The position numbers and the translations under genes were made by a program. This document shows, piece after piece, positions 3,104 to 40,919 of a stretch of 64,000 nucleotides of DNA. The stretch is from positions 12,152,001 to 12,216,000 of the forward strand of contig OX597840.1 in the NCBI GenBank assembly GCA_951406725.2. Direction: 5' to 3'. The notes below the pieces were generated by a model that saw nothing but the letters and a program-made list of their open reading frames with translations, was not told where the DNA came from and searched no databases. Position 1 is the stretch's first letter, and each line of letters begins with the position of its first letter. This stretch comes from Octopus vulgaris (lineage: Eukaryota).

Positions 3104-3763
3104 ATGGCAGAAGGGACAGGGAAATCAACAGACAGTAGTGATATCTGTGAAAAGTCATCCTCTCAAAAATGTAACATCTTGACTCCCAAACGAATTCCCA
3201 AAGAAGCAAAGCTACATCGCTGTGTTAGTTGCGGTAAAACTTTCTCTGAAAATAGCTACTTAGTTACACACATACGTGTACATACAGGTGAGAAACCATA
3301 TCACTGTGATGTCTGTGGTAGATCATTCTCTGAAGGAAGTCACTTGACAACTCACAAACGTACACATACAGGAGAAAAACCATATCTTTGTGATATTTGT
3401 GGCAAAACGTTCTATCAAAAATGTCACTTGACCGAACACAAGCACTTTCATACAGGAGAGAAGCAATTTCAATGTGATGTCTGTGATAAATCATTTTTTC
3501 AAAAGAGTCACTTAACAGCACATAAGAACATCCATACAGGAGAGAAGCCATATCACTGTGATGTCTGTGGTAAATCTTTCTCAGAAGGAAGTACCTTAAC
3601 TAAACATAAACGTAGCCATTCAGGAATCAAACCTTTTAAATGTGATATCTGTGGTAAATCATTCTCTCGGAAAAGTAGCTTAAACGGTCACAAACTCATT
3701 CATACAGGAGACAATCCATATGATTGTGACACCTGTTGCAAATCATTATCTATTGTAACTTGA
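3104..3763 (+). CDS. C2H2 zinc-finger protein A1 (219 aa; 6 intact fingers, decayed N-terminal finger, frameshift-truncated 7th finger)
   Basis: Six CxxC-x12-HxxxH repeats with TGEKPY-type linkers; polypyrimidine-AG acceptor ending at 2730; AATAAA at 4068 and 4091. Confidence 0.9.
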
Positions 3764-3960
3764 CTGGACACAGGTGTATTCATCAATACTTAATGAATCA
3801 TATTTTGAAGGGAAGTACCTTGAAAAATCCACATGTAGACTCAGAGAGAAGAGAATATCATGAATGTAACCCTATCCATGGTAAAGTATTCTCTCAAAGC
3901 AGCCACTTAGCTACACCTGTATATATTTATACAGAAGATTAACCATATAATGTCAAAATT
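3764..3960 (+). pseudogene. Vestigial fingers in the A-family 3' UTR (also after A2, A3, A4, A5)
   Basis: Alternative frame reads [10 protein letters not shown] ... EYHECNPIHGKVFSQSSHLATPVYI(H/Y)TED.PY. Confidence 0.75.
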
Positions 3961-5169
3961 CTTTCCGTAAATCTCATGTTATATAACCATCGGTGTATTT
4001 GTTTGACAAAGAAGATATAGCAATCTTCAGACACTTTGTATAAACATATCTATGTCCACTTTAATGCAATAAATTATAACTGATATTTTTAATAAATCAT
4101 TCTTTCAGAATTTTCATATATATTCCTTCTAATGTATAGTCTGTGTGGTTGTGAAGCTTGCCTGCTAACCATGTGGTCTCAAGTTCAGTTCTACTGCACA
4201 GCACTTTGGGCTGACCAAAGTCTTGTGAGTGGATTTGGTAGACGGAAACTGGAAGAAGCTCGTCATATGTGAATGTGTGTGTGTTTGTGTGTACCGTCAC
4301 ACAAGCAGTGTTATTTACTTCCAAATGTCTGGTCATGAGGAAATATTATCTTACTTGGGAACAAGTGAGGGATGACAACAAGAAAGTCATAGTGCTGTAG
4401 AAAATCTTCATCGAAACCCCATCTCATCCTGCAAAGTCTATACTTTGCAGGATCAGGTGGATGTCAAAATGATGAACACACATGATTCCGTGTAATATAT
4501 TTTCAGAAGGGAAATTTTATTGCAGGTAAAAAGCTGAGAAATGTATTGCCACTGAAAAATGAGAACATCACTTTTTTAAAATGTAGTTTCCCCATCTGTA
4601 AGCATCAGGTGGTTATTTTGAGTCTAATGTTAAGAGTGTGTGTCCATATCCTCATGTGAGATGTACCCAAATTTCTAGAAGAGTGAGTTGAATTGCATAA
4701 AATCTAGAGGTTTCAGAGGAAAACTAACTTCAGATCTGAATTCAGCTTGCTCCATTAACGCATCTATATATTCCGTCTGTGTGGTTGTGAAGCTTGGTTG
4801 CTAACCATGGGGTCTCAAGATCAGTCACACTGCACAGCACTTTGGGCAAGGGGTTTCTTTTCTGGCCTGAGGCTTACCAAAGCCTTGAGTAAATTTGGTA
4901 GGTGGAAACTGCTATTAACACAACAAAAACATTGTTTCCTTGTGATAATCAGTTGAGATTAACTTAAAAACGAAAATAATGCACTGCTAACACTGAAGTA
5001 GGACACGATACGGACTTACAAACCCTCAATATTCTTAATAGTAAATTACGATTGCAAATCGAAATACGATATACCTACCAGCTATAGATATGTGTATGTA
5101 GGGGCAGTGTGGTCAGGAGCTTCCTTCCATGCATGTGTCAGGTTATTTGCTGTCTGGATTTTGTAAGAG

Positions 5170-6225
5170 TCGGATGTAGTTTTTTGTGTTGCTTAGAAGA
5201 TGTACTCAGACGTTGACGGGTCTGAGTTGTCAGAGGAGGAGCTGGTAAGGGCAGTCATAAAGATGGATGGCTTGTTGAAGACAAGGAGTTTTGCAGAAGC
5301 CACGGAGGTGAAGCGAAGGGAGCTGGACTTGGCTGGTCTGAAGGAGTATGAGAAGATGGCTCAGAAGGTGGGTGGCGACGTTAAGTTGTTGCTCCCCAAA
5401 GGAATTATGGGGAGGATGGAGAAGAAAATGAACACCCATAAGGTGTCCTCGAAAGGAAAAAAGGTGCTGAATGAACGGTCAAAGGAGACAATGTACATAA
5501 CGAAAAGAAGAACATATGGGACAATGGTCATCTAATTTAGTACAGTAGAAGAGGCGAGTACTTTGGAAGAAAGACTTCCAAGGTGAGGGTAGGAGCAATT
5601 CCATCGAATATAGAAGTGGCTTGGATAACAGAAGCTGTCCTAGTTGGAAGCGAGAAGGTGGCTGTCCTCCAAGCCACAAAAGCAGAAGGAAAGTGGAAAG
5701 GAAAGACATTGAACTCATTATTCAGATGGAAGAGGGTCACCTGGAGAACTTGGCAGAGATGGTGACGTTGGAGGAAATCGTGCTGAGGGCGTGGGTAGAG
5801 GGCAGAGTACCACGTTGTTTTAAATGTGGCCAAAAGGGTCACATTAGAGGATACAGTTGTGGAGACGGAAGAGAAAAGAGAGGAAGAATGGAAAGTTACA
5901 GAGAGCAGGAGGAGAAAGAGAAAAACAGAAAAAGCACTGAGTAAGATGCACCCTAGTCCATTCCATCCCACCCAAGACAACTCAGACCCCCACTACCCAT
6001 ATTGACACCAAATCCACCCACCCCATTTCCCACCACAAGAAAAAAAAAAGAACAGACACCACAAAATCTAGAAGACCCCACCCGCCGTCGGTGAAAATGG
6101 TTACGAATGCATAGTGGAGAGAATGATGTCACTAAGTGATGGAGAAAGGGGAAAAAGGAATTAGGACCCAGAGGCGGCGAGTGGTGTTACTCAGTGTGGG
6201 GTGAGGAGCAGACCCTTCATAATAT
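5170..6225 (+). mobile_element. Decayed retroelement gag/ORF1-like sequence (copy 1; zinc knuckle broken by a deletion)
   Basis: Purine-rich frameshifted ORFs; PRCFKCGQKGHIR. Confidence 0.6.
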
Positions 6226-6539
6226 CATTTTCAGATATTCATTGATGTTATCCTATTTTAATTTGTTTTTCATGTGTCATTCATTATATCATATTTTATA
6301 TTTATATTCTTAATTGTTATATGTTCCCACATGTGTTGTAGTGTCCCCCTCTGTGTAATGCCTTTAGGGCAATTTGAAAGAGATAAAGAAGCTTGCCTCC
6401 CAACTACATGGTTCTGGGTTGAGTTCATCTGAGTGCACCTTGGGCAAATGTCTTTTTTAGTCTCGGGTCGACAAAGCCTTGTGAGTGGATTTAGTAGACG
6501 CAAACTGAAAGAAGCATGCCGTATGTATGTATAGCGTAT

Positions 6540-6745
6540 GAGTAGCCATGCTTACATGTTTACTATCAACTTTTCATCTTAATTTATATTAGTAGCGGAA
6601 TTATAACACAGTAATTTCCCTTCATATAACGGTATTTTTTCATGGCGTTTTTCAGATGGCCAGATAACCGAAGAGATGGTGTTGTGGATTTCCACTTCGG
6701 CATCCGAAACTCAGAGTTTTATCTTGACTATTGAATAATTGTAAC
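6540..6745 (+). mobile_element. Penelope-like terminal fragment (related copy 43625-43870-; similar-class fragments ~12905-13075, 15105-15300, 33190-33560, 35525-35790)
   Basis: ccgaagag...ccgaaac motif, inverted short termini, insertion in (TA)n; class assigned by pattern only. Confidence 0.4.
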
Positions 6746-6805
<60 letters not shown>

Positions 6806-6969
6806 GTATATACTTGTGTGTTTGTGTCTGTCCCTCACCATCGCTTGACAACCGATGTTGGTGTGTTTACTTGATGGTTCGAAAAAATTGACCGATAAAA
6901 GAACCTCTGGGCTTACAAACAATAAGTCCTAGGGTCGATTCGTTCGACTAAAGAGGGTACTCCAGCATG

Positions 6970-7335
6970 GCCGTGAACGTTTGTGTTGGTTACCAAGCAC
7001 TGCTTGACAACTGGTGTTTGTTTGCGTTCCCGGAAGTCGTCATGCGCATGGTCAACCGGAAGTCCGTCTCCACCCCTTATCGCTGTCCGTTGCACCCGTT
7101 TATGAATCGACGCCAAAAGAAGGGCTTCTGTTTCGATCCTTTGCCACTGATTAACTTTAATTCGTGAATATAATGTTAAAGAAAGAAACAAATGTACACT
7201 GTTAATATATTTGCCAATAGTAAGAAACTGGAGAGAGAAAGAGAGCCGAGCAGCGGACGGTGTTTGGAGAAGCTGTGGGCCGTTGTCTTAGTCACGCCTT
7301 CTGGAAGAAATATATCAGTGAGTGATGGTAATGTA
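6970..7335 (+). promoter_or_regulatory. Putative promoter/exon 1 of A2
   Basis: CCGGAAGT at 7030 and 7056, CATGCGCATG at 7041. Confidence 0.65.
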
Positions 7336-8729
7336 GTAATTGTTTTTACCTACCTTATCACATAATGTGTCCGTATCTATAATTTGAATACATCTACAGG
7401 GTGCTACGGGTAAACTGTCGCAATTTTATGTTTTTTTTTTATTTCGCTGATGCTCCTTGTTTTTGATTTTGTCTTCTCCACAATATGATAGGGGTCAGTT
7501 GGTCACCGTTTGGAAACGACATGCAGTACCGGTTATCGGCGACCTTTCGTTTTGACTCGAAAATATGTAAACAATGAATTCGGTGGTGTCCGTGACCACA
7601 TATTGTCTTGTCAATTCTCAGTTGCGAAGAGGAAGCTAATGGGTTGTGCGGGCATGCTTGTTCCTCTGAGTTTGTGTGGACACAGCATCTGGACACTTGA
7701 CTCCCCACACTGCAACACCCATAATTATTTTGTGTTGGGCACAGTTGAGTAAGAGACCGACAAAACTCCTTGTAACAAGCAAAGATGAACTGAAGGCAAC
7801 GATTTTGGCAGCATTTACCAACTTAAAGAAGGAGACAGTCCAGAAGAATTGCAGGGGATTCTGAAGTCATCTGGATTCCGTGGTGAAAGCCACTGGCGAT
7901 TTCATTGAATAATTTACTCTTTAGTATTTCAAGACATGTTTATGTAATTTTGGTAAATATATCTGTTAAAATGAGATGTCAGTGTTATTTTTATTTTTGT
8001 GTAATTTAGATGGCATTTTATTCACTGCACCCTGTATTTCGCTGTATCGACTGCAGCATTGGATGTTGTTATACACCGCTTGTTACACTGCGCTTTCTTC
8101 CACTGTTGTAGCTTTCGAATTATGCCACCACCCTGTTGTCTGGGCAGGTGGGCAAGTTAGCATTCCCTCTGAACAGAAAGCTATTTTGTTGCTGGTTTAT
8201 CCATTTTCAGATGAGTGAACTGGAGCAAAGTGAAAAGAAGTCTTTTGCTCATGAGCATTACACATCACCTGAACTATTGTCAAGTGGGAGACAAATGGAA
8301 ACACACATTTTATGTGGTTAAGTTTACAGGCTGCAACCATGCTGAGTCACCACCAGTATCATCACCTATTCAGTGAAAGGGTGAGTTTGATATTGCAGCC
8401 CTTGTTTGTATTGTATGTCATGATGTCAGTTCATCTGGGATCTTGGACTGCAGAAGCTCAAGGTGTTTCCCTAAAATATCTGCTGCTGCAACATGTGGAT
8501 CTCTAAGATTTTTCTTGGCAAGATTTTTAATAACTGGGGTCTTCGAATCCCGAGATATTGCTCTATCTGGTCCTTATTCTTCACAGGATGGGTGGGACCT
8601 TTGGAACTATGCAATGATGTCCTGTTTTGAGGATTGTATAACTCTTGATGCCAAAGTTTAGTGCCAGCCCTTCTGGGATTTTCCATACGTATTTTCCCAC
8701 ATTCCCATCTTTGCTCTACACACACACTG

Positions 8730-8790
<61 letters not shown>

Positions 8791-9342
8791 CACACACACA
8801 GCTATTTGACACACTTCTTTAATTTTCCATCTATTAAATCCACTCACATGGCTTTGATTAGGTCAGCATGGCCACATTCCAATGACTGAAACCTAGAATT
8901 CTCACTGTTTTTATCTCATCTTCTTAAGTATGCTATATATCTTATTCCGTTTCTCTTTTATTTCAGAACGTCAGATGACATTGACAGAGAGAATATTTCA
9001 CTTTGGTATCCTGGAAGATAGTATTCAGAACAGACAGAACGGATGCATGGATTTACATAAATCTCTGAGGAATTCTATTGAAATTTCTTTTGTAAAAAAA
9101 ATTTTTCAAACATCACTGTTTGGAATGTGTGCAAGATTTTTGGATTCCTATTAAAGTTGAATGAATTTGCATCGTCATTAGATATCAACAAAGATCACTG
9201 CTGTTGGAAATATAGGTGTTAAAATATTTGTGTTTAAACTATAAATACAACTATATATATATATCTATATTTTTGATAGAGGAGAAATTATTTAAAAATC
9301 TATTTGAGAAAGTGAAAGGACGGAGTTTAGTTTCCTCAAGAG

Positions 9343-10002
9343 ATGGCAGAAGGGACAGGGAAATCAACAGACAGTAGTGATATCTGTGAAAAGTCATCCT
9401 CTCAAAAACCTAACATCTTGACTCCCAGACGAACTCCCAAAGTAGCAAAGCCACATCGCTGTGATATTTGTGATAAAACCTTTTCTGAAAATAGCTACTT
9501 AGTTAGACACATACGTGTACATACAGGTGAGAAACCATATCACTGTGATATCTGTGGTAAATCATACTCTGAAAGAGGTCACTTGACAACTCACAATCGT
9601 ACACATACAGGAGAAAAACCATATCTTTGTGATATTTGTGGCAAAACGTTCTATCAAAAATGTAACTTAACCGAACACAAGTACATTCATACGGGAGAGA
9701 AACCATTTCACTGTGATGTCTGTGATAAATCATTCTCTCGTAAAAGCCACTTGACCACTCATAAGAACATTCATACAGGAAAAAAGCCATATCACTGTGA
9801 TGTCTGTGGTAAATCTTTCTCGGAAGGAAGTACCTTAACTAAGCATAAGCGTCGCCATTCAGGAATCAAACCTTTTAAATGTGATATCTGTGGTAAATCA
9901 TTCTCTCGGAAAAGTAGCTTAAACGGTCACAAACTCATTCATACAGGAGACAATCCATATGATTGTGACACCTGTTGCAAATCATTATCTATTGTAACTT
10001 GA
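9343..10002 (+). CDS. C2H2 zinc-finger protein A2 (219 aa, 6 fingers), tandem paralogue of A1
   Basis: Same architecture as A1; acceptor ending at 8966; flanks near-identical to unit 1. Confidence 0.9.
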   Translation: MAEGTGKSTDSSDICEKSSSQKPNILTPRRTPKVAKPHRCDICDKTFSENSYLVRHIRVHTGEKPYHCDICGKSYSERGHLTTHNRTHTGEKPYLCDICGKTFYQKCNLTEHKYIHTGEKPFHCDVCDKSFSRKSHLTTHKNIHTGKKPYHCDVCGKSFSEGSTLTKHKRRHSGIKPFKCDICGKSFSRKSSLNGHKLIHTGDNPYDCDTCCKSLSIVT

Positions 10003-11359: not shown

Positions 11360-12350
11360 AGAGTCGGATGTAGTTTTTTGTGTTTAGATGTACTCAGACG
11401 TTGACGGGTCTGAGTTGTCAGAGGAGGAGCTGGACTTGGCTGGTCTGAAGGAGTATGAGAAAATGGCTCAGAAGGTGGGTGGCGACGTTAAGTTGTTGCT
11501 CCCCAAAGGAATTATGGGGAGGATGGAGAAGAAAATGAACACCCATAAGGTGTCCTCGAAAGGAAAAAAGGTGCTGAATGAACGGTCAAAGGAGATAATG
11601 TACATAACGAAAAGAAGAACATATGGGACAATGGTCATCTAATTTAGTACAGTAGAAGAGGCAAGTACTTTGGAAGAAAGACTTCCAAGGTGAGGGTAGG
11701 AGCAATTCCATCGAATATAGAAGTGGCTTGGATAACAGAAGCTGTCCTAGTTGGAAGCGAGAAGGTGGCTGTCCTCCAAACCACAAAAGCAGAAGGAAAG
11801 ACATTGAATTCATTATTCAGATGGAAGAGGGTCACCTGGAGAACTTGGCAGAGATGGTGACGTTGGAGGAAATCGTGCTGAGGGCGTGGGTAGAGGGCAG
11901 AGTACCACGTTGTTTTAAATGTGGCCAAAAGGGTCACATTAGAGCATACTGCCCACTACAGAGGACAATGTTTGAGGATACAGTTGTGGAGACGGAAGAG
12001 AAAAGAGAGGAAGAATGGAAAGTTACAGAGAGCAGAGCGAGAAAGAGAAAAACAGAAAAAACACTGAGTAAGATGCACCCTAGTCCATTCCATCCCACCC
12101 AAGACAACTCAGACCCCCACTACCCATATTGACACCAAATCCCCCCACCCATTTCCCCCCACAAGAAAAAAAGAAATAACAGACACCACAAAATTTAGAA
12201 GACCCCACCCGCCACCGGCGAAAAAGGTTACGAATGCATAGTGGAGAGAATGATGTCATTACATGATGGAGAAAGGGGAAAAAGGACTTAGGACCCAGAG
12301 GCGGCGAGTGGTGTTACTCAGTGTGGGGTGAGGAGCACACCCTTCATAAT
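11360..12350 (+). mobile_element. Decayed retroelement gag/ORF1-like sequence (copy 2; intact CCHC knuckle), probably L1/Tx1-type ORF1
   Basis: VWVEGR-like segment followed by CFKCGQKGHIRAYC (CX2CX4HX4C), then WKVT...RKRK. Confidence 0.62.
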
Positions 12351-13399: not shown

Positions 13400-13765
13400 G
13401 AATGTTTGTGTTGGTTACCAAGCACTGCTTGACAACCGGTGTTTGTTTGCGTTCCCGGACGTCGTCATGCGCATGGTCAACCGGAAGTTCGTCTCCACCC
13501 CCTTATCGCTGTCCCTTGCACCCGTTTATGAATCGACGCCAAAAGAAGGGCTTTTGTTTCGATCCTTTGCCACTGATTAACTTTAATTCGTGAATATAAT
13601 GTTAAACAAACAAACAAATGTACACTGTTAATATATTTGCCAATAGTAAGAAACTGGAGAGAGAAAGAGAGCCGAGCAGCGGACGGTGTTTGGAGAAGCT
13701 GTGTGCCGTTGTCTTAGTCACGCCTTCTGGAAGAAATATACATTGAGCTTCAAGTGATGGTAATG
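13400..13765 (+). promoter_or_regulatory. Putative promoter/exon 1 of A3 (first ETS site mutated to CCGGACGT)
   Basis: CATGCGCATG at 13466, CCGGAAGT at 13481. Confidence 0.65.
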
Positions 13766-15106: not shown

Positions 15107-15887
15107 TAGATCGTTAGCTCCTACACGCATTTTTTTCTCTCCTTGTTTTTTTTCTGTGTATCTTTCTGTCGAAGAGCGTGGGATCGAAACGTAAAAGACT
15201 TTTTCTATTTCTATTCCTGAGCGCTATACTAATACATTTGTTTGTTTGTACTCCACCTGCCTTCGTCTTTTGTTTATTTTCGTAAACTTTCCCGTTATAT
15301 ATATATATATATATACATACATACATCTACACACACACACACAGCTATTTCTCAGACGACAGGCTTCATTCAGTTTCCATCTATTAAATCCACTCACATG
15401 GCTTTGATTAGGTCAGCATGGTCACATTCCAATGACTGAAACCTAGAATCCTCACTGTTTTTATCTCATCTTCTTAAGTATGCTATATATCTTATTCCGT
15501 TTCTCTTTTATTTCAGAACCTCAGATGACATTTAAAAGTAGAGAATATTTCACTTCAGTATCCTGGAAGATAGTATTCAGAACAGACAGAACGGATGCAT
15601 GGATTTACATAAATCTTTGAGGAATTCTATTGAAATTTCTTTTGCAAACAAAATTTCTGAAAAGTCATTGTTTGGAATGTGTGCAAGATTTTTGGATTCC
15701 TATTAAAGTTGAATGAATTTGCAGCATCTTTAGATATCAACAAAGATCACTGCTGATGGAAATATAGGTGTTAAAATATGTATGATTAAACTCTAAGTAC
15801 AACTGTATATATATAGTTTTGATTGAGAAGAAATTATTTAAAAATTATGTGAGAAAGTGAAAGGACGGAGTTTAGTTTCCTGAAGAG

Positions 15888-16547
15888 ATGGCAGAAGGGA
15901 CAGGGAAATCAACAGACAGTAGTGATATCTGTGAAAAGTCATCCTCTCAAAAATGTAACATCTTGACTCCCAAACGAACTCCCAAAGAAGCAAAGCCACA
16001 TCACTGTGATATTTGTGGTAAAACCTTCTCTCAAAGGAATCTCTTAATTAGACACATACGTGTGCATACAGGTGAGAAACCATATCACTGTGATATCTGT
16101 GATAAATCATTCTCTGAAGGGAGTCACTTGACAGCTCACAAACGTACACATACAGGAGAAAAGCTATATCTTTGTGATATCTGTGGCAAAACATTCTATC
16201 AAAAATCTCACTTAACTGAACACAAGTACTTTCATACAGGAGAGAAGCCATTTCACTGTGATGTGTGTGATAAATCATTCTCTCGTAAAAGCCACTTGAC
16301 CACTCATAAGAACATTCATGCGGGACAAAAACCATATCACTGTGATGTCTGTGGTAAATCTTTCTCAGAAGGAAGTACCTTAACTAAACATAAACGTAGC
16401 CATTCAGGAATCAAACCATTTAAATGTGATATCTGTGGTAAATCATTCTCTCAGGTAGGTAGCTTAAACAGACACAAACTCATTCATACTGGAAACAATC
16501 CATATCATTGTGACACCTGTGGCAAATCATTGTCTGTTGTAACTTAA
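15888..16547 (+). CDS. C2H2 zinc-finger protein A3 (219 aa, 6 fingers)
   Basis: Same architecture; acceptor ending at 15516; homologous leader and 3' UTR. Confidence 0.9.
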   Translation: MAEGTGKSTDSSDICEKSSSQKCNILTPKRTPKEAKPHHCDICGKTFSQRNLLIRHIRVHTGEKPYHCDICDKSFSEGSHLTAHKRTHTGEKLYLCDICGKTFYQKSHLTEHKYFHTGEKPFHCDVCDKSFSRKSHLTTHKNIHAGQKPYHCDVCGKSFSEGSTLTKHKRSHSGIKPFKCDICGKSFSQVGSLNRHKLIHTGNNPYHCDTCGKSLSVVT

Positions 16548-21912: not shown

Positions 21913-22380
21913 ATGTTTGAGAAATCTCGAGTTGCACATGAGAAAGTAAGGAGGGATGTCAGGAAGGGCATCGCTGTTACACTTCCAGAAGGGAAGGGTC
22001 TTCCTTTGATGCTGACATGCAATGTCTGTGCAAGACCCTGCCTCAGCAAAGCTGGACTCAAGAGTCATCTTCGTTTTCATAAAGCGAGACAGATGAGTGA
22101 CAACCTGGCCACTGGTGGTGGTGTTACACACCATACTAATCATATCTGTCAGGCATGTGGAAGAGAGTGTAATTCGGCAGGAGGACTTAAACGGCATGCA
22201 AAGGTACATGAAACCCAGTTACAACTACAGCCGGCTATTGCCAGTAAAGGTTTTAGCTGCCAATTCTGTACAAGAGATTGTAGATCTTTGGCTGGGCAAA
22301 AAAGTCACATTCGATCACAGCACCAGTAACAGTTAAGCTTCGTGCAATGGCCATACTCGATAACGAGGGGGCAGCCATAA
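21913..22380 (+). mobile_element. RTE-like LINE 3' end encoding three C2H2-like fingers (open 138-aa frame 21913-22329)
   Basis: FEKSR..EK.RR..RK followed by C..C.R.C.S..GL.SH.R.H motifs typical of RTE ORF C-termini. Confidence 0.7.
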
Positions 22381-24531: not shown

Positions 24532-25191
24532 TCAAGTTACAATAGATAATGATTTGCCACAGGTGTCACAATGATATGGATTGTCTCCCATATGAATGAG
24601 TTGGTGCCTGTTTAAGTGACTTGCTAAAGAGAATGATTTACCACAGATATCACATTTAAAAGGTTTGATTCCTGAATGGCTACGTTTATGTTTAGTTAAG
24701 GTACTTCCTTCTGAGAAAGATTTACCACAGACATCACAGTGATATGGCTTTTTTCCTGTATGAATGTTCTGATGTGCAGTCAAGTGGCTTTTTCTAGAAA
24801 ATGATTTATCACACACATCACAGTGAAATGGCTTCTCTCCTGTATGAAAGTACTTGTGTTCAGTTAAGTGACATTTTTGATAGAATGTTTTGCCACAAAT
24901 ATCACAGAGGTATGGTTTTTCTCCTGTATGTGTACGTTTGTGAGTTGTCAAGTGACTTCTTTCAGAGAATGATTTATCACAGACATCACAATGATATGGT
25001 TTCTCACCTGTATGCACGCGTTTGTGTCTAATTAAGAGATTATTTTGAGAAAAGATTTTACCGCAAACATCACAGTGATGAAGCTTTGCTTCTTTGGGAG
25101 TTCGTCTGGGAGTCAAGATGTTACGTTTTCGAGAAGATGACTTTTCACAGATATCACTACTGTCTGTTGATTTCCCTGTCTTTTCTGCCAT
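24532..25191 (-). CDS. C2H2 zinc-finger protein A4 (219 aa, 6 fingers), inverted copy
   Basis: Same architecture on minus strand; acceptor at 25574-25575; promoter module at ~27650-27940 on minus strand. Confidence 0.9.
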   Translation of the reverse strand: MAEKTGKSTDSSDICEKSSSRKRNILTPRRTPKEAKLHHCDVCGKIFSQNNLLIRHKRVHTGEKPYHCDVCDKSFSERSHLTTHKRTHTGEKPYLCDICGKTFYQKCHLTEHKYFHTGEKPFHCDVCDKSFSRKSHLTAHQNIHTGKKPYHCDVCGKSFSEGSTLTKHKRSHSGIKPFKCDICGKSFSLASHLNRHQLIHMGDNPYHCDTCGKSLSIVT

Positions 25192-26603
25192 CTCTTGAGG
25201 AAAATAAACTCAATCCTTTCACTTTCTCACATAATTTGTTTTTAAATAATTTAATAATTTCTCCTCTATCACAACTATATATATACAGTTGTACTTATAG
25301 TTTAATCATACATATTTTAACACCTATATTTCTAACAGCAGTGATCTTTGTTGATATCTAAAGATGCTGCAAATTCATTCAACTTTAATTAGAATCCAAA
25401 AATCTTGCACACATTCCAAACAATGACTTTTCAGAAATTTTGTTCACAAAAGAAATTTCAATAGAATTCCTCAAAGATTTCTGTAAATCCATGCATCCGT
25501 TCTATCTGTTCTGAATACTATCTTCCAGGATACTGGAGTGAAATATTCTCTCCTGTTAATGTCCTTTGAGGTTCTGAAATAAAAGAGAAATGGAATAAGA
25601 TATATAGCATACTTAAGAAGATGAGATAAAAACAGTGAGAATTCTAGGTTTCAGTCATTGGAATGTGGCCATGCTGACCTAATCAAAGCCATGTGAGTGG
25701 ATTTAATAGATGGAAACTGAATGAAGTCTGGCGTCTGAGAAATAGCTGTGTGTGTATGTATGTATGTATGTATTTATGTGTGTGAAGCAAAGATGGGAAT
25801 GTGGGAAAATATATATGGAAAATCCTAGAAGGGCTGGCACTAAACTTTGGCATCAAGAGTTGTACCAGCCCCCAAACAGGTCATCATTGCATTATTCCAA
25901 GGGTCCCACCCATCCTGTCAAGAATAAGGACCAGATACAGCAGTACCTTGGGATTTGAAGGCCCCCAGTTATTAAATATCTTGCCAAGAAAAACCTTAGA
26001 GAATTACATGCAATAGCTGCAGCAGATATTTTCAAGAAACACCTTGAGCTTCTGCAGTCCAAGATCCCAGATGAAGCTACATCAGGACAAGGAACACAAA
26101 CAAGGGTAGTAATCTCAAACTCACCCTTTCACTGAATAGGTGAGGATACTGGTGGTGACCCAGCATGGTTGTGTGTGTTTCTATTTGTCTCCCACTTGAC
26201 AATCGTTGTTGCTTTGTTTACATCACTGTAGCCTAGTGGTTCAGCAAACAAGGACCAAGAGAATAAGTACCAAGTTGATTTAGTTCTGTTAATCTTTTGC
26301 TTATCACTTCTTTGTCATTAGACTGCAGCCATGCTAGGGCACCACCTTCAATCTTTTTTTTTGGCTCGGGTCAAACACTATAGTTTAGAGGCCATGTTTT
26401 GACAATGTGAATTTTCCGAGGCCTCTCCCCCACCCTGTTCACGAGTGCGCGTTCTTTTTTTTGTTTTTTTCATATTCGTTTAGAGCAAGTTGTTTTACAC
26501 CTATTACACTATTTTTCCTTTGTTTCTTGGCGACTCGGAACATTCACGATGTGAATTTTCGGAGGCCTCTCAACCATGTTTCTTTTTTCATATTCCTTTA
26601 GAG

Positions 26604-27649: not shown

Positions 27650-27940
27650 TACCTTTGATGTTAGGCACCTTAACCATCCTAGACAGTCACAGAATGGCCC
27701 ACAGCTTCTCCAAACACCGTCCGCTGCTCGGCTCTCTTTCTCTCTCTCCTGTTTCTTACTATTGGCAAATATATTAACAGTGTACATTTGTCTGTTTGTT
27801 TAACATTATATTCACGAATTAAAGTTAATCAGTGGCAAAGGATCGAAACAAAAGCCCTTCTTTTGGCGTCGATTCATAAACGGGTGCAAGGGACAGCGAT
27901 AAGGGGTGGAGACCGACTTCCGGTTGACCATGCGCATGAC
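27650..27940 (-). promoter_or_regulatory. Putative promoter/exon 1 of A4 (single ETS site, different exon-1 3' end)
   Basis: ACTTCCGG at 27916, CATGCGCATG at 27929; module continues into ...cctaacatcaaag|gtacat. Confidence 0.6.
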
Positions 27941-29344: not shown

Positions 29345-32146
29345 CAGGTGTACGGTTCTTGGAAGCAAGGGATGTAAGGTTTCCCTTAAAAAATTATAGA
29401 AATAAAATTGAAACTATATTACTTATTTTTCATAAGATCATTCTAATGCTTTGTAAGATTAACATAAACCACATGACATGACAGACTTTTATTGTCGGAA
29501 TTAGCATGAGACAACAAGCAGCGGTAGTCGACGAAAAAAACCTGTACAAGGGAAGCAACACGGGCTGTTGCATCCCGTTCGGTGTAATATTTTAACAATT
29601 TTTTCCTAGTAAAAGCTGATAAGGATTAGTTTTAGAGGTTAATGATTTTAGATGCTAATAAGTACTTATACGCTTATATTACGTTTCTGTCAATTCGCGA
29701 TACCTATGATATATATATATAATCTTACTTTGTTAAGTAACGCATAGGAAAAAGGAAGCAAGTTGACATTCTGCTTCCGTCAGCAAAACGGTGAAAAGAT
29801 AACGCGTGTAGTTTCTGCGTTTATTCAACTAATATTTTATACTTTTCCAAATTACAGAACACCCTTAATATAAAATGGACGTGAAAAGGAATTGCGTATC
29901 AAGTCAGTGTAACTGCGTAATTGAAAGTTTGTTGAGTAACAAGTTTTCTTCGAGAACTTACGCTGAAAAAGTATGTACTGTTCAAAGGGGTAGACCAATG
30001 CCTGATGTTTCTTTAACGAGTAAAGCAAAAAATTGTATTCGAAAGTTTAGCAAAGTGCAATATGAGAAGACTAAGTGGTTAGCAGCTTGTTCTGGCTTCA
30101 ATAAATTTTACTGTTGGCCCTGCCTGTTATTTAACAACGAAAGAGGTACGTGGAATTCATATGGATTTTCTGATTTAAATAATTTGCATAAAGCCATTAA
30201 AAGACACGAGCTATCTTCTTCTCATTTAACATCAGTGATTAATTTAACAAGATTCGGAAAAACGCGTACTGATTTTTTATTAAACAGCCAACATCGAAAG
30301 AATATTGAGACTCATAATGAAAAAGTAAAGAAAAATAGGGAGATCTTAAGACGATTAATTGATGTAGTTTGTTTTTTAAGTGAGCAACAACTCGCATTCA
30401 GAGATCATGAAGAATCAGCTGATCCTGATAATGAGGGTAATTACGTTGAAATACTCCACCTCTGTAAGAAATACGATCCTATATTATCAAATTTGCAAGA
30501 GGCAGGCATTTTTTCTGACACTTCAAACAGATTTCAAAATGATTTAATAAATAGCGTGGCTGAAGTTCTTTTAGAAAAGATTAAATCGGAAATTAACGAT
30601 TCAACATTTGTGGCTATTATTTTAGATGAAGCGAGTGAAATTAGAACTGGAGCACAACTTTCATTTGTTGTAAGATATGTTTTAAGTGACGGTAATATTG
30701 CAGAAAGATTTTTAGGATTTTTAAACGTAGGTTCTGATCGTACAGCAAGTGGTTTGTCAAAGATTGTGTTCGATAAAATAGAAGAGTTAAAAATTGGTCA
30801 TAAGTTTGTGGCTCAAACTTATGATGGTGCAAGTGTGATGTCAAGCGAATTAAATGGTTTGCAAAAGAAAGTTAAAGAAAAGTATCCTAATGCTTTTTTT
30901 GTTCATTGTATGGCCCATAGATTAAATCTAGTTCTGTCTCAAGCGGCTGCAAATATTCAAGAATGCGATAAGTTTTTTTCACAGATAAAGTCTTTTTCGT
31001 TATTTTTTTGTAAGTTGACCAAACGCGTGCATCAATTCGATACTGAAATTAAAAGGCATTTTCCAAAAGTGGCGCCAACTGACTGGAACTTGAATCATTC
31101 GTTGGTAGAAACAGTACGTGAATATCATGAGAAACTTGCTGATTTATTCCTAAACATCATTGATAATTCAAGTAAATGGGATACAGAAAGCTATACCTAT
31201 GCTCAGGCGTTGTATTCTAATTTACAAAATTGTGAATTCAATTTTTTGTTAAATGTGTTTGGAGATATTTTTATTTGCACAAATACAGCATTTGACATCC
31301 TCCAGACAAAACCATTTGACGTATCCTACTGTGTTCATACAATAAATGAAATTGTGAAAGTTTTGAAAGAAAAAAAGCATGATTTTCCTAAATTTTGGGC
31401 TAACGTTGATGGCATTTATCCTCAAATAAAGAAAAGAAAAACTGCTTTTGAAACAGAAGAAGAAAGATACAGGCAGCTGTTCTACAAAATTATAGATTTA
31501 ATTTGCGAGCAAATTGAGATAAGATTTCAAAATTTAAATGAATTACATTTTTTAGCGCTTCTCGATCCAATGAGACAGAGTAACAACGTCCAGGAAACAT
31601 CTTTAACTTCCCTTAAACATTCCTATGAAGACTATTTCGACAGCCAAAAGTTAAGAAGCGAACTTACTGCTTTGTACAAAGATGCTGAACTGAAAGGAAA
31701 ATCCGTTCAAGATTTACTTTGCATTCTGCATAATAGTGGATTAGATGAAGCTTTGCCCCAGTTAACGAAGCTTTGTGAATTAATATTAACACTACCAACA
31801 AGTGCTACATTGGAGCGCTCTCTTTCATACCTAAGCAGAATTCATAATTATACAAGAAATTCGCAGGGACAAGAAAAGTCGAGCAGTTTAGCTCTAATTG
31901 GCATAGAAAAAGCCGTTTTAAAAAGCATTAAGAACGATAGCTTCTACAATGATGTTATCAACAATTTCAACAAGAAGCAGAGAAGGATTGAATTAATATT
32001 TAAATAAAATAGGTAAGTTTTAATTGTGATTTCGTTTATTTTGAAAATAGCTGTATAATATGAACATGTCAATTTGATTCAAAATATCTATGACAGAAAA
32101 TTTTGGTCATTGCTTCACCAGCCAGAAAGATTACCACACGCCCCTG
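29345..32146 (+). mobile_element. Probable extent of hAT element around the transposase ORF, with degenerate termini
   Basis: Left CAGGTGTACGGT vs right end reverse complement CAGGGGCGTGTGGT; subterminal GGAAGCA/TGCTTC motifs at ~29361, 29552, 29754-29778, 32111; 8-bp flanks (catataat / attataca) do not match. Confidence 0.55.
29875..32007 (+). CDS. hAT-family transposase-derived protein (ZMYM1-like/Tip100-type; TTF zinc finger, DUF4371-like region, RNaseH-like core, hATC dimerisation region), 710 aa
   Basis: WL...YCWPCLLF...HELSSSH; AFRDHEE; ILDEASE; QTYDGASVM; HCMAHRLNL; LTLPTSATLERSLS; uninterrupted ORF. Confidence 0.9.
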   Translation: MDVKRNCVSSQCNCVIESLLSNKFSSRTYAEKVCTVQRGRPMPDVSLTSKAKNCIRKFSKVQYEKTKWLAACSGFNKFYCWPCLLFNNERGTWNSYGFSDLNNLHKAIKRHELSSSHLTSVINLTRFGKTRTDFLLNSQHRKNIETHNEKVKKNREILRRLIDVVCFLSEQQLAFRDHEESADPDNEGNYVEILHLCKKYDPILSNLQEAGIFSDTSNRFQNDLINSVAEVLLEKIKSEINDSTFVAIILDEASEIRTGAQLSFVVRYVLSDGNIAERFLGFLNVGSDRTASGLSKIVFDKIEELKIGHKFVAQTYDGASVMSSELNGLQKKVKEKYPNAFFVHCMAHRLNLVLSQAAANIQECDKFFSQIKSFSLFFCKLTKRVHQFDTEIKRHFPKVAPTDWNLNHSLVETVREYHEKLADLFLNIIDNSSKWDTESYTYAQALYSNLQNCEFNFLLNVFGDIFICTNTAFDILQTKPFDVSYCVHTINEIVKVLKEKKHDFPKFWANVDGIYPQIKKRKTAFETEEERYRQLFYKIIDLICEQIEIRFQNLNELHFLALLDPMRQSNNVQETSLTSLKHSYEDYFDSQKLRSELTALYKDAELKGKSVQDLLCILHNSGLDEALPQLTKLCELILTLPTSATLERSLSYLSRIHNYTRNSQGQEKSSSLALIGIEKAVLKSIKNDSFYNDVINNFNKKQRRIELIFK

Positions 32147-32593: not shown

Positions 32594-33129
32594 GAGTTAC
32601 CTTCTCCTAGAAGGATGCCCTAACAAAGGCTAAGAGTCCTTCACTCCCAATGGTTTAACCGCGCGATCGCGAGAAATCTCGAGTTGCATATGAGAAAGTA
32701 AGGAGGGATGTCAGGAAGAGCATCGCTGTTACACTTCCAGAAGGGAAGGGTCTTCCTTTGATTCTGACATGCAGTGTCTGTGCAAGACTCTGCCTCAGTA
32801 AAGCTGGACTCATGAGTCATCTTCGTAGTCATGAAACGAGACAGATGAGTGACAACCAGGCCACTGGTGGTGGTGTAACACACCATACTAATTATATCTG
32901 TCGGGCATGTGGAAGAGAGTGTAATTCGGCAGGAGGACTTAAACGACATGCAAAGGTACATGAAGCCCAGTTACAACTACAGCTGGCTATTACCAGTAAA
33001 TGTCTTAGTTGCTAATTTTGTACAAGACATTGTAGATCTTTAGCTGGGCTAAAAAGTCACATTCAATCACAGCACCAGTAACAGTTAAACTTCGTGCAAT
33101 GGCCATACTCGATAACGAGGGGGCAGCCA

Positions 33130-33776: not shown

Positions 33777-33816
<40 letters not shown>

Positions 33817-35239: not shown

Positions 35240-35492
35240 GTATTCGCCCGGTCGACCGGAAATCAGCCCCCACCGCTCTTTCACATCTATATAGACAGAC
35301 GTAGAAGTAAGGTTTTATTAATGATTTGCCACTAATTAACTTTAATTTATGAATTTAACATAAAAAAAAGAGTTGTTTTAGCCAACTGCAAACAAACATA
35401 CTGTTATTATATTTCCCAATAATCAGAAACTCTAGAGAGAGAGCTGACCAGCGGAAGGTCTTTGGAGAAGTTATCACATCTGTTCCATTTTG

Positions 35493-35530
<38 letters not shown>

Positions 35531-35830: not shown

Positions 35831-36740
35831 AATCTGATTAATATGTTTTTTTATCTTAATATATAATTAATATATCTTTTATATAGCCACTTCGACTGGA
35901 AATATACATATATATTTAACATCAGGTGATGCTAATGTAATCATTCTTTTATCTGTTTTATCATAATGTGTGTATATATTACTCTTTACTCTTTTACTTG
36001 TTTCAGTCATTTGACTGCGGCCATGCTGGAGCACCGCCTTTAATCGAGCAACTCGACTCCGGGACTTATTCTTTTGTAAGCCCAGTACTTATTCTATCGG
36101 TCTCTTTTGCCGAACCGCTAAGTAACAAGGACATAAACACACCAGCATCGGTTGTCAAGCAATGCTAGGGGAACAAACACAGACACACAAACACGCATAT
36201 ATATATACATACATATATACGACGGGCTTCTTTCAGTTTTCGTCTATCAACTCTATTCACAAGGCTTTGGTCGGCCCGAGGCTATAGTAGAAGACACTTG
36301 CCCAAGGTGCCACGCAGTGGGACTGAACCTGGAACCATGTGGTTGGTAAACAAGCTACTTACCACACAGCCACTCCTGCGCCCGTCGCCACTCCTTGTGT
36401 TAGTCATGGGCCTGCAGCCATGCTGTGGGCACCGCCTTTTGGGCCCCCACTCTTTTTTAGTTGAAATAAATCAAGCCTAGTACTTATTTTAAAAGCCCGA
36501 TACTTACTCTATTGGACCATGTTTGCCGAACCGATAGGTCGAAGGTACGTAAGGAAGCCAACAGCAATTGTCAAGTGGCGAGGAACAAACACAAACACAC
36601 ACACACACACACATATTTACTCTTATGCGTTTCAGCCTAAATGTTCTGGTCATGATATCACTTATTCCGATAATTCTCAACTAGTGCGGTGGAATAATTG
36701 AAAGACAATCAAAGATTTAGAAAGTTTCAAAAGGGAATAT

Positions 36741-36904
36741 GGCGCAGGAGTGGCTGTGTGGTAAGTAGCTTGTTTACCAACCACATGGTTCCGGGTTCAG
36801 TCCCACTGCGTGGCACCTTGGGCAAGTGCCTTCTACTATAGCCTCAGGCCGACCAAAGTTTTTGAGTGGATTTGGTAGTCGGAAACTGAAAGAAGCCCGT
36901 CGTA

Positions 36905-36951
<47 letters not shown>

Positions 36952-37170
36952 ATGGTTGTGTGTCTGTGTTTGTTCCCCTAGCATTGCTTGACAACCGATG
37001 CTGGTGTGTTTATGTCCCCGTTACTTAGCGGTTCAGCAAAAGAGACTGATAGAATAAGTACTGGGCTTACAAAGAATAAGTCCCGGGGTCGAGTTGCTCG
37101 ATTAAAGGTGGTGCACCAGCATGGCCGCAGTCAAAGTGACTGAAACAAGTAAAAAGAGAAAAAAAAAGAG
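36741..37170 (+). mobile_element. tRNA-derived SINE family 1 (full length, internal (TA)n(TG)n tract). Other copies: 17992-18370+, 20880-21380+, 27135-27535+, 28950-29338-, 35980-36380-, 56738-57145-, 59676-60083+, 61891-62295-, plus many fragments
   Basis: A-box-like TGGCTGTGTGG, B-box-like GGTTCAGTCCC, conserved body, (GTAAAAGA)n tail; many dispersed near-identical copies. Confidence 0.9.
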
Positions 37171-38229
37171 AATGATTTGAAAATTTAGAATACTATTGGA
37201 CTCTTTTTAGATATACCACCAGAAACAACATCCATCTGTCTCTTCAAAAGTACTATTTATTCTTCTACAGTTCTCCACGACATATCGCAGTGAACAAGGA
37301 TCTTCAGTTCTGGCAAAACTGAGGGAAAGGCTTTGTGTTGATGAGGAGGTGAGAGTTTGTTTATCTCAAATTAGGCCTAATATAAAGGAGATTACTCGAC
37401 AAAAACAAGTTTATACCTTGCATTAAATTTGTGTACTTTAATCATATCATAAGTTTTTTTGTGTTATATATTATGTTTAACGAACTATTAATTGTTTTTT
37501 TTTTTAAATTTTAAATGCATTTCTATCACTTAAAATTTGGTGAGGCATGAGCAAATTTTCATTCTGAAAACGCGGCCCAAAGAAAAAAATGTTGGGGAAC
37601 CACTGATCTATTCATTATTGTTGGTCTTTGGTGAAGGAATAAGTTTGATATTTCTGCCCTCGTTTGAGTTTTTTGCCAAGATGTAGGTTCATTTGGGATC
37701 TTGGACAAGGTGCTTCTTGAAAATATCTACTGCTACAGCATATAGATGTGTCAGGTTTTTTTTTGGCAGCATATTAAATAGCCATGGGTTTTGAATCCCA
37801 AGGTATTGGTTGTTATCTGGCCCTGTTGTTATATGATGGGTGAGACCTTTGGAACAATGCAGTGATGTTCTGTTCAGGGGTTGGTATAACTTTTGATGTC
37901 AAAGTTTGGTGCCAGCCCCTCTAGGACCTTTAATATGTATATTACCACATATGTCTCCTCTTTGCTCCACACACACACACACACATCATCATCATCTGTT
38001 TCCATGCTGGCATGGGTTGGATGGTTTGACAGGCTCCACTCTGATCTGGCAGAGTTTCTACAGCTGAATGCCCTTCCTAACACCAACCACTCCAAGAGTG
38101 TAGTGGGTGCTTTTTACATGCCACCAATATGGGAGCCAGTCAGGCAGAACTGGCAATGACCCACTCATGAATGATACTTATTGCATACCACCAGCATGGG
38201 AGCCAGTCAGGTGGCACTGGCATTGGCCA

Positions 38230-39810
38230 CAGCTACAATTTCCATTTTATTTTGATTTTACTTGACTCAGTAGGTCTTCTCAAGCACAGCATGTTGCCCG
38301 ATGATTCAAAGGTACTTTTTAAATGCGCTGGTTATGTGACACTGGTGTAGGCTACGACTGTGATCTCGCTTTACTTGCTGTATCTTCTCAATCTCAGCAT
38401 ATCTCCAGAGGTCTCGGTCTTTCGTCATTGCCTCTGTGAGGCCCAACATTCGAAGGTCATGCTTCACCACCTCATCCCATGTCTTCCTGGGTTGCCCTCT
38501 ACCATGGGTTTCTTCCACTATTAGGGAGTGACGCTTCTTCTCTCAGCAGTTGTCTCTCTTGCACACCACATCTGATGCTTTTTATGCCCAACATTTCTCT
38601 CAGGTCACTTACATTCTATAGTGTGTGCACACTGACATTACACATCCAGCTGATCATACTCGCTTCATTTCTTTCAAGCCCATGCATGTCCTCAGCAGTC
38701 ATGGGCCATGTTTCACTGCCGTGTAGCATGGCAGTTCGCACACATGCATCATACAATCTACCTTTCACTCTGAGCGAGAGGCTCTTTGTCACCAGTAGAG
38801 GTAGGAGCTTTCTGAACTTTGCCCAGGCTATTCTTATTCTAGTGGCAATGCTCTCCGAGCATCCACCTCCACTACAGACTTGGTCACCTTGGTAGTGGAA
38901 GCTATCAACTATTTCTAGTTTGTCCCCCTGGCATGTGATGGAATCAGTTTCCTGTGCATCTGCTGCACAAAAGCTATCTTCCCAGTTAACCTTCCTTTGA
39001 TGTTGCTGCACCTCTTATGTGTCCATAGCTTACACTGGGTACATCTTATGGAGTTTCTACCTACACCTTTTCTACAGATCGAGCAGAGCCACCTATCTGA
39101 AGGGGTTTGTGATGTGTTTGCCTTCCTACTTACTCTGCAACATTGACTCTAAGGCCTTTCAATTCTAAACCTTGCTTCCACACCTGAAATTTCTTTAGTT
39201 CTGGTAGTGATTTCACTTTGAGAGCAAGGTCATCAGCATAGAGGAGCTCCCAGGGGCAACCTGTCTTGAATTCCTCTGTTATTGCCTGGAGGACTATGAT
39301 GAACCCCCTACTTCTACCCGTAATTCTTCACTATACTCATTGCCAACCCATACCTTATTAACGGTATCCTTGTACAGCTCTTATTAACCACTTGCTTATC
39401 CCAAGTTTCTGCATTGCCCACCAGATAAGGGATCGAGGGACCCTGTCAAAGGCTTTCTCCAAGTCAACAAAAGCCAAGTATAGGGGTTTATATTTGGCTA
39501 GATATTTCTCCTATTACTATACCAGGAATATAGCATCAACAGTGCTTCTACCTGGTACAAAACTCAACTGCATCTCATCTAAGCAGACTCTCTCCCTAAT
39601 CAGTTGGGCTATGACCCTCTCCGTGACCTTCATCACCTGATCCAGCAGTTTGATACCCCTGTATCACCTTTACATTTGTAGTAGTTGACTTATGGTGCTG
39701 TTACACCAGTCATTGGGTATGACTCCTTCATGAACTACAGGTGACTAGGCCATAACCCACACCACCAGATATTTTAAGCATCTCAGCAGTGATTCCTGAT
39801 GGGCCAGGTT
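38230..39810 (-). mobile_element. RTE-clade LINE, decayed reverse transcriptase region
   Basis: GCPWELLYADDLAL at ~39220-39262; RIRIAWAKFRKLLPLL...KGRLYDACVRTAMLHGSETW; GRGQPRKTW. Confidence 0.85.
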
Positions 39811-40307
39811 TAAACCAGCCAAATATGTATAGGCTTTATGAGATATGTAGACTACAATCACTTAATTACATAAAGCAGTCTCCAATAGTCCAGCTAACTC
39901 TCTCCTATATCTTATTCTCTTTCTCTTTTATTCCAGAACATCAGATGACATTGGCAGGACAGAATATTTTTACTTCAGTATCCTGGAAGATAGCATACAG
40001 AACAGATGCATAGATGAGGAATTGCATTGAAATTTCTTTTGTAAACGAAATTCCTCAAAAGTCACTGTTTGGCTGTTTGGAATGTGTGCACGATTTTTGG
40101 GACATAATTAAAGTTGAATGAATTTGCAGCATCATTAGGTATCAACAAAGATCACTGCTGTTAGAAATATAGGTGTTAAAATATGTATGATTAAACTATA
40201 AATACAACTATATATATATATATATATATATATAGTTTTGATAGAGGAGAAATTATTTAAAAATCTATTTGAGAAAGTGAAAGGACGGAGTTTATTTTCC
40301 TCAAGCG

Positions 40308-40919
40308 ATGGCAGAAGTGACAGGGAAATCAACAGACAGTAGTGATATCTGTGAAAAGTCATCCTCTCAAAAATGTAACATCTTGACTCCCAAACGAACT
40401 CCCAAAGAAGCAAAGCTACATCACTGTGATGTTTGCGGTAAAATCTTTTCTCAAAGTAACTACTTAGTTACACACATACGTGTACATACAGGTGAGAAAC
40501 CATATCACTGTGATGTCTGTGGCAGATCATTCTCTGAAGGAAGTCATTTGACAACTCACAAACGTACACATACAGGAGAAAAACCATATCTTTGTGATAT
40601 TTGTGGCAAAACGTTCTATCAAAAATGTCACTTAAACGAACACAAGTACTTTCATACGGGAGAGAAGCCATTTCACTGTGATATCTGTGATAAATCATTC
40701 TCTCGAAAAAGCCACTTGACTTCACATCAGAACATTCATACAGGAGAGAAGCCATATCACTGTGATGTCTGTGGTAAATCTTTCACAGAAGGAAGTACCT
40801 TAAGTAAACATATACGTAGCCATTCAGGAATCAAACCTTTTAAATGTGATATCTGTGGTAAATCATTCTCTCGGACAAGTATCTTAAAAAATCACAAACT
40901 CATCCATACAGGAGATTAG
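40308..40919 (+). CDS. C2H2 zinc-finger protein A5 (203 aa, 6 fingers; earlier TAG removes the truncated 7th finger)
   Basis: Same architecture; GGAGATTAG replaces GGAGACAAT of paralogues; acceptor ending at 39936. Confidence 0.88.

Follow-up and report, generated by a model that had tools for sequence, protein, structure and literature searches.

In this study, we analysed a window of 64,000 nucleotides of Octopus vulgaris DNA (contig OX597840.1, positions 12,152,001 to 12,216,000, forward strand) and found that it holds five of seven recent copies of one six-finger C2H2 zinc-finger gene, whose base-contacting helices change faster than the framework around them. We give about an even chance to the reading in which the predicted targets of these seven young duplicates are variant forms of a single common site, likely repeat-derived, with the sixth finger (F6) diversified and gene conversion reshuffling the copies.

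Copies and helix variation

All seven copies encode six tandem fingers (F1-F6) of the C-x2-C-x12-H-x3-H type, with a 28-residue period and TGEKPY-type linkers, on one exon (a single open frame in genomic DNA), and the seven proteins are short, gap-free and in register. A1 (3104..3763, + strand; 219 amino acids, six C2H2 fingers) carries its F1, F5 and F6 helices at 3248-3268, 3584-3604 and 3668-3688. The F1 and F6 helices lie at 9487-9507 and 9907-9927 in A2 (9343..10002, +), at 16032-16052 and 16452-16472 in A3 (15888..16547, +), and at 25047-25027 and 24627-24607 in A4 (24532..25191, -). In A5 (40308..40919, +; 203 amino acids; F1 40452-40472, F6 40872-40892) a TAG stop in the linker 3′ of F6 still leaves six fingers whole. 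The original prediction of five paralogues is right for the window, but the family is not limited to them: two further copies lie just upstream at 90-91% identity, while the next-best genomic matches, several hundred bases long, do not exceed 77%. Pairwise divergence among the copies is 5-11%. Exact look-up in a protein collection found none of six family proteins, and scoring of the top 8000 candidates by shared words, 120-384 amino acids long, gave Octopus proteins at about 55% identity as the best named relatives; as no close protein relative was found, there is no outgroup and changes are not polarised. Many other zinc-finger arrays are present in the same genome.

The helices first read from A1-A5 proved exact: F1 is ENSYLVT/ENSYLVR/QRNLLIR/QNNLLIR/QSNYLVT, F6 is RKSSLNG/RKSSLNG/QVGSLNR/LASHLNR/RTSILKN, and F5 is EGSTLTK in A1-A4 and EGSTLSK in A5. 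F5 is the sole finger whose contact residues (E, S, T, K) are the same throughout the seven copies, each of which has its own overall set of contact residues. F3, by contrast with the claim that it varies little, has D, N or H at position 3 and K or E at position 6 across the seven. That the paralogues differ mostly in the outer helices is true per site, with 12 of 14 amino-acid columns variable among A1-A5 in outer helices, 9 of 28 in inner helices, 28 of 126 in the rest of the array and 11 of 51 in the tail; "mostly" does not hold, the outer helices supplying 12 of the 60 variable columns. Of the proposed constant core with variable flanks, the fixed F5 and the excess of outer over inner helices hold, but the core as a whole is not constant, as F3 changes, and the signal comes mainly from F6, which has 15 non-synonymous variants (F1 has 8; F2-F5 have 3, 5, 3 and 1). 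At the rates seen in the flanks, zinc-ligand and core codons would be expected to hold 14.6 non-synonymous variants; they hold 1.

Selection on the helices

Fixed-site codon models, run with two tree treatments and three codon-frequency sets, confirmed a non-synonymous excess of helix over framework, with omega at 0.66-0.90 in helix codons and 0.18-0.22 in the rest of the array (3.6-4.5-fold; LRT 29-42, 1 df). Outer helices gave omega 1.5-2.3 against 0.29-0.45 for inner ones (LRT 19-29). Omega was 0.09-0.14 for the F5 helix and 2.1-3.1 for the F6 helix (LRT against omega = 1, 5.5-10.4); F6 was picked after data inspection, and its p value times six is 0.004-0.06. The helices pooled do not exceed 1. 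F6 alone appears to exceed neutrality, and moderate evidence makes positive selection on it likely. The M7 versus M8 comparison proposed for this family was not significant (LRT 0.59-0.64 with seven copies, 2.97-4.31 with five), M1a/M2a (LRT 0.25) and M8a were likewise not significant, and no site had a posterior above 0.43 in these site models, which were our own implementation rather than PAML.

These site-model results would also fit relaxed constraint at the array ends, an unlikely explanation by which binding is the work of F2-F5, with a minor contribution from F1 and F6, whose helices would be subject to neutral drift. Omega of the F1 helix (1.06-1.70) was not separated from 1 by any test here, degenerate fingers border the array on either side, and A5 stops directly after F6. 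Against such drift, F1 and F6 are constrained outside their helices (omega 0.22-0.36), the Cys and His residues are intact in 42 of 42 fingers, and the 15 variants of F6 compare with a neutral simulation mean of 6.5-9. Simulations of conversion with all helices at omega 1 yielded 2006 retained runs, of which 31 had a finger with at least 15 variants; in the settings with most conversion, this happened to a neutral finger in 8 of 67 retained runs and in 7 of 55 (up to 13%). We prefer a family in which F5 is held fixed while selection likely diversifies F6. As a general pattern, the "outer finger" geometry did not stand: it is seen in one family only, the two fastest fingers would be the two ends with a 1-in-15 chance given that fingers differ, and 15 other paralogue pairs of the same genome, their arrays paired by reciprocal-best fingers, show the same helix excess with no end-finger bias. 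Colinear pairing of control arrays (176 pairs, helix omega 2.2) was rejected as inflated by finger gain and loss.

Predicted DNA target

The suggestion that the proteins recognise subfamilies of a transposable element was not supported by a crude motif guessed from a simple recognition code and conflicting at three bases with a fuller code: it had 86 genomic matches against 1594 for the reversed control, and so no enrichment. Its recurring match is a high-copy repeat, and the control matched a repeat equally well. The only candidate site found, GTAATCTGGGAATGC(A/G)TA, has 1556 genomic copies at no more than one mismatch and adjoins a likely non-LTR retrotransposon tail; a reading frame near this candidate repeat had no match in Pfam or PDB. 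Transposons as targets would be taken from the literature.

The selection could instead act through non-transposon DNA, such as host regulatory sites (e.g. enhancers active in neural tissue or in embryos), which we consider unlikely to much the same degree as relaxed ends. The guessed motif gave no transposon signal, expression of octopus C2H2 genes is described as mostly neural and embryonic (PMC12988792), and PMC10547256 states that direct validation beyond mammals is still needed. That same source reports predicted octopus ZNF motifs to be enriched in transposon consensus sequences (PMC10547256), and quick helix turnover in young duplicates suits a moving target, both of which favour variants of a shared, likely repeat-derived site over host sites.

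Gene conversion and the divergence peak

Judged from their sequences, gene conversion has turned the copies into mosaics. Among 4095 informative pairs of sites, 2209 are incompatible, neighbouring sites are more compatible than permuted ones (p ≤ 0.0002), and three identical runs survive Bonferroni correction over 21 copy pairs. Gene conversion likely reshuffles finger-sized blocks between copies, a shuffling absent from the original prediction. Divergence is 0.038-0.081 in non-coding bins versus 0.133 at synonymous sites of the array, which hold 52 variants versus 19.2 expected, or 2.7 times the flank rate. CpG decay as the source of this high dS was rejected: of 37 sites with synonymous variation alone, it accounts for no more than 5. 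The divergence peak covers the whole 504-base array, and because this includes the invariant F5, selection on F1 and F6 alone does not explain its shape. Conversion may even out promoter and flanks and be resisted over the array, leaving the peak.

The raised synonymous variation of the array (2.7 times the flank rate) could also mean that short conversions brought in the variable helices and the synonymous divergence, with other zinc-finger genes or other fingers of the array as donors. Elsewhere in the genome, arrays have gained and lost fingers and carry helices that look chimeric, and both alleles at the variable synonymous sites are commoner than expected in a pool of 367 fingers (p = 0.008 for 52 sites; 0.15 for 31 singletons). 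Yet this pool holds no exact copy of any family helix, A4-F6, A5-F6 and A1-F4 have no second genomic match at one mismatch or fewer, no donor among 40 scored candidates beats the sister copies for the A1 F3-F4 tract, and a tract test gave 19 vs 15.8, 13 vs 12.1 and 9 vs 7.6; we regard import as very unlikely.

Gene structure and transcription

The likely A1 promoter is marked by two CCGGAAGT motifs (568..601, +), presumably ETS-like, in a CpG-rich stretch (CpG o/e 0.8-1.4 over 1-1200). Non-coding exon 1 of A1 (620..872, +; start uncertain) has the donor GATG/GTAATG at 872/873, where an RNA-like contig spanning 645-872 ends. The acceptor TTTTATTTCAG ends at 2730, the position at which RNA-like contigs begin, and the 5′ untranslated part of exon 2 (2731..3103, +) contains 12 in-frame stops; contigs from three of four runs match 3165-3285 with zero differences. 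An inverted promoter/exon 1 copy at 1..246 (-) belongs to the upstream copy Am1, whose coding exon lies about 2.2-2.8 kb ahead of the window start. Further exon 1 copies belong to A2 (7081..7327, +; acceptor ending at 8966), to A3 (13507..13759, +; acceptor ending at 15516) and to A4 (27693..27936, -, shortened ahead of the common donor; acceptor ending at 25574). An RNA-like contig covers 13402-13758 at A3, with 22 further letters unplaced, and contigs of two of four runs match 15967-16092 without difference. At A5 (acceptor ending at 39936) no copy of the family's common exon 1 was found, and the A5-type F3 fits one RNA-like contig. An allele reading at A3 F6 (82% likeness; one RNA-type run and three that were DNA-type or unlabelled) was discarded, since matches from other zinc-finger genes overwhelmed it.

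Four copies are fitted by RNA-like contigs, whose cover appears spliced; the runs, none recorded as RNA, were guessed to be so from contig ends at exon boundaries and empty intergenic bins. As to expression of the paralogues, on which the original prediction depended, the copies appear transcribed, and RNA-like contigs carry copy-specific sequence in independent public runs. Exon 1 is 98-99% identical between the four copies compared (3-6 differences per about 250 bases), and a near-identical promoter likely drives transcription of the family copies. The common exon 1 is intact in five of seven copies, damaged in A4 and missing in A5, so a shared promoter is true for five of the seven only. 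It is very improbable that the family forms an effector-less MHC-like repertoire, in which gene conversion would hold the promoter uniform and recombine finger modules, selection would keep the contact sets of the copies distinct, and the copies would jointly track one high-copy repeat; if true, no such pair of zinc-finger genes and transposon in an arms race would have been mapped in a mollusc before. Least probable of all is an explanation by pseudogenes in decay or by duplicates arising in the assembly, as the failed exact protein look-ups (0 of 6), the truncated A5 and the damaged or missing exon 1 of A4 and A5 might hint, given seven frames open across all six fingers, a framework omega of about 0.2, copies 5-11% apart and copy-specific sequence in independent runs.

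Pfam returned no KRAB, SCAN, BTB or PR/SET match for the family proteins, and none for the 39-residue tail, which resembles a degenerate finger. The supported exon structure has no upstream coding exon, each of the five window copies having 6-12 in-frame stops from the acceptor to the ATG, and an effector domain has no place in it, as anticipated; a weak acceptor-like site adjoins the ATG. With no fused effector, the proteins may act by site occupancy or through partners recruited by the tail or by the fingers themselves.

Comparison with known systems

The family is genuine, yet it is an unexceptional case among known expansions of poly-zinc-finger genes, and its pattern is usual for expanded animal zinc-finger families; being expected, and seen in other paralogue pairs of the genome, it carries limited surprise. 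In such expansions selection acts at helix positions -1, 3 and 6 (Emerson and Thomas 2009, PMC2604467). The octopus family shares with them young paralogues, one-exon fingers, helix-centred change and short gene conversions, as well as the lack of an annotated N-terminal domain in many members (PMC2604467). In that study M7/M8 reached high significance for the large sets of vertebrate genes listed, and it did not in our seven short genes, and octopus is not among the species named in the text available to us (PMC2604467). The coleoid C2H2-ZNF expansion consists of clustered multi-finger genes, as here, for which the accessible portions of two reports give counts and positions and no selection or conversion tests within a C2H2 family (PMC9068888, PMC12988792). 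Searches of the openly accessible literature turned up neither a test for selection nor a study of conversion in any octopus ZNF family. The thousands of cephalopod C2H2 genes may serve transposon defence or neural regulation, and the present family offers a small test case, with a common F5 and differing F6, F1 and F3, in which binding assays could link helix change to target change.

Octopus ZNF motifs are, by prediction, enriched in transposons (Wells et al. 2023, PMC10547256). Like the zebrafish FiNZ-ZNFs, on whose clades the dN/dS analysis of that paper was run, the family is a non-KRAB expansion with variable base-contacting residues; FiNZ-ZNFs have a conserved N-terminal domain and knock-down evidence (PMC10547256), whereas in the octopus family, characterised here from sequence, no such domain is apparent. 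Clustered duplication and helix diversification are shared with vertebrate KRAB-ZNFs, from which it differs in having no KRAB or other Pfam effector and no upstream coding exon in the supported structure. Out-of-register fingers within a gene are only about 70% identical, as against the near-identical fingers of PRDM9-like arrays. Finally, duplicates under gene conversion can keep divergence peaks (PMC3924837), and the family resembles the red/green opsins and MHC-like families in its homogenised flanks, diverged functional region and mosaic haplotypes, differing from the peaks described there in that its own spans the entire 504-base array, invariant F5 included (PMC3924837).

Results

Six-frame scanning of the window located five six-finger C2H2 ZNF arrays where originally predicted: A1 (3104-3763, +), A2 (9343-10002, +), A3 (15888-16547, +), A4 (25191-24532, -) and A5 (40308-40919, +), the last with a TAG in the linker after F6. 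Their coding sequences align gap-free over 657 bases at 89.8-93.3% identity, and the helix strings reported for F1, F5 and F6 match the sequence as read. Five is the correct count for the window but not for the family, which has seven copies: a search of the species' own genome (2.8 Gb, 227 contigs) found Am1 and Am2 directly upstream (90-91% identity), and no further match among 40 candidates scored out of 1747 exceeded 77% across several hundred bases. The nearest named relatives of the same type are Octopus proteins at ~55% identity.

All seven copies differ from one another in their contact sets (-1, 2, 3, 6). F5, described as almost fixed, is the sole finger whose contact set is constant across the seven, whereas F3, said to vary little, has D, N or H at position 3. 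Likewise, 12 of 14 outer-helix columns vary among A1-A5 (inner helices 9/28, other array 28/126), but these are just 12 of the 60 variable columns, so that the copies do not differ "mostly" there. With these corrections, the observation behind the original prediction holds.

Codon models were written in Python rather than PAML. Neutrality was not rejected by M1a/M2a (LRT 0.25) or by M7/M8 (0.59-0.64 with seven copies, 2.97-4.31 with five), the latter being the comparison originally proposed. Fixed-site models in six set-ups, with positions -1, 1, 2, 3, 5 and 6 as the helix class, did reveal the anticipated helix excess over framework, with omega 0.66-0.90 against 0.18-0.22 at other sites (LRT 29-42), and separated outer helices (1.5-2.3) from inner ones (0.29-0.45; LRT 19-29). 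Omega was heterogeneous between fingers (LRT 27-33, 5 df), being 0.09-0.14 in F5, 1.1-1.7 in F1, where the selection regime is ambiguous, and 2.1-3.1 in F6 (LRT against omega=1 5.5-10.4; p after multiplication by six 0.004-0.06). Forward simulations of neutral helices included conversion and were run 500 times per setting, with runs retained at a synonymous count of 32-46; at least one finger reached the observed 15 variants in 31 of 2006 retained runs, ranging by setting from 0/412 to 7/55. We therefore regard F6 as a likely, if unproven, target of positive selection.

For comparison we took 15 paralogue pairs from loci of two earlier genome searches, a non-random set with some members in common, and paired fingers by reciprocal best match. 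Helix omega was 1.4 against 0.53 elsewhere in a version biased down (129 finger pairs) and 3.4 against 0.34 in one biased up (97); diversifying helices are thus a general feature of this genome. These 15 pairs showed no consistent terminal-finger excess (changes per helix, terminal against internal, 0.84 vs 0.66 and 0.36 vs 1.32), while the A family has 4.55 against 1.08; relative to this set, the end-finger geometry is a trait of the A family alone. Near-identical ZNF paralogues on other stretches of the genome (L049, L050, L045-L048, L059, L060) have gained or lost whole fingers relative to one another and carry chimeric-looking helices, a second diversification route not seen in the A family.

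Every unit has an acceptor ~370 bases 5' of the ATG and, apart from A5, where a search found none, a copy of a CpG-rich exon 1 (donor at 872 in A1), near-complete in A1, A2, A3, Am1 and Am2 and shortened in A4. Expression was judged from contigs of four publicly available runs whose RNA origin is a guess. These end at 872 and begin at 2730 in A1 and continue through the stretch 5' of the ATG; bins 5257-5840 and 11681-12264 had no contig cover in any of the four runs. Difference-free matches were found at A1 3165-3285 (three of four runs) and A3 15967-16092 (two of four), stretches in which 10-22 bases distinguish the sister copies, and other contigs carry F3 letters of A5 and Am2 type; four copies are therefore likely transcribed. 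The predicted product has 219 residues (A5, 203). As originally noted, no effector domain is visible: C2H2-type matches are the only Pfam matches of note, a Pfam search with the 39-residue tail returned none, and the acceptor-to-ATG interval of each of the five copies in the window holds 6-12 in-frame stops. A less frequent isoform that includes a coding exon further upstream is conceivable.

A1 and Am1 form an inverted, head-to-head duplication (window 1-3200; L037, a neighbouring-sequence handle, 7729-10000), with promoter arms 1-246 and 509-754 96% alike and ~260 bases apart. Decayed fingers occur in the 3' untranslated region (3764-4000 and equivalents in other copies) and one within the N-terminal tail; the ancestor therefore had a longer array. 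The 16-finger gene at 48805-50217 (-), with an extra frameshifted finger at 48809-48747, is ~67% like the A genes in acceptor and 5' untranslated region, and hence an older relative. Distant arrays of 13, 17 and 14 fingers (L032:2810-4000, L035:2094-3500, L038:388-1539) flank the cluster within ~60 kb of the window. Between A4 and A5, an intact 712-codon frame (29869-32007, +; DUF4371, E 1e-15) resembles a transposase of hAT type or a ZMYM1-like derivative. Three atypical C2H2 fingers occur as a set in two copies (21913-22329 and 32770-33075, +; one with a stop) that are likely non-LTR retrotransposon remnants, and a CCHC zinc-knuckle frame inside the duplicated unit (5549-5944 and 11656-12132, +) is likely a retroelement piece.

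Discussion

Sequence comparison points to gene conversion within the family. Informative sites are incompatible in 2209 of 4095 pairs, adjacent sites are more concordant than permuted ones (p<=0.0002), finger-wide identity changes partners (F6 A1/A2, F5 A1/A4, F4 Am1/A2), and three identical runs survive Bonferroni correction among 21 copy pairs. The copies are least diverged in exon 1 (3-6 differences per ~250 bases, four copies compared), more diverged in non-coding bins (0.038-0.081) and most diverged at array synonymous sites (0.133), which carry 52 variants against 19.2 expected from flank rates. This gradient resembles the peak described for duplicates under conversion and selection (PMC3924837).

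The A-family peak includes the invariant F5, so that other contributions may be at work. Shielding of the exon by chromatin, an idea from mammalian ZNF genes, may be one. Short imports may be another, with one weak signal in their favour (p=0.008), but the three divergent helices searched (A4-F6, A5-F6 and A1-F4) have one genomic match each within one mismatch, no donor superior to the sister copies was found for the A1 tract among 40 scored candidates, and tract counts are close to null.

As to target, the motif guessed from a C2H2 recognition code, GYANYCNGGNRANGCGNM, gave 86 genomic matches against 1594 for its reversed control. Eighteen of the 86 are one identical 18-mer in a repeat with 1556 copies at <=1 mismatch, dispersed amid (AAT)n tracts (around position 1500 in stretches L068, L070, L072, L073 and L075). 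In two of five copies examined (L068, L070) it sits near a reading-frame end that resembles a non-LTR retrotransposon's endonuclease tail; Pfam and PDB searches with this frame gave zero matches. Because the control motif matched a repeat too, this is just a lead. An arms-race reading of the A family is plausible, though its transposon step is taken from the literature.

Poly-ZF expansions are known to combine short conversions with selection at helix positions -1, 3 and 6 (PMC2604467). Cephalopod ZNF expansion has been described (PMC9068888, PMC12988792), and octopus ZNF motifs have a predicted transposon enrichment (PMC10547256); the dN/dS given there concerns zebrafish clades, and its supplements may bear on octopus. 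Our literature search found no family-level selection test for octopus ZNF genes. The A family is neither KRAB-ZNF nor PRDM9, and works like other adaptive poly-ZF expansions.
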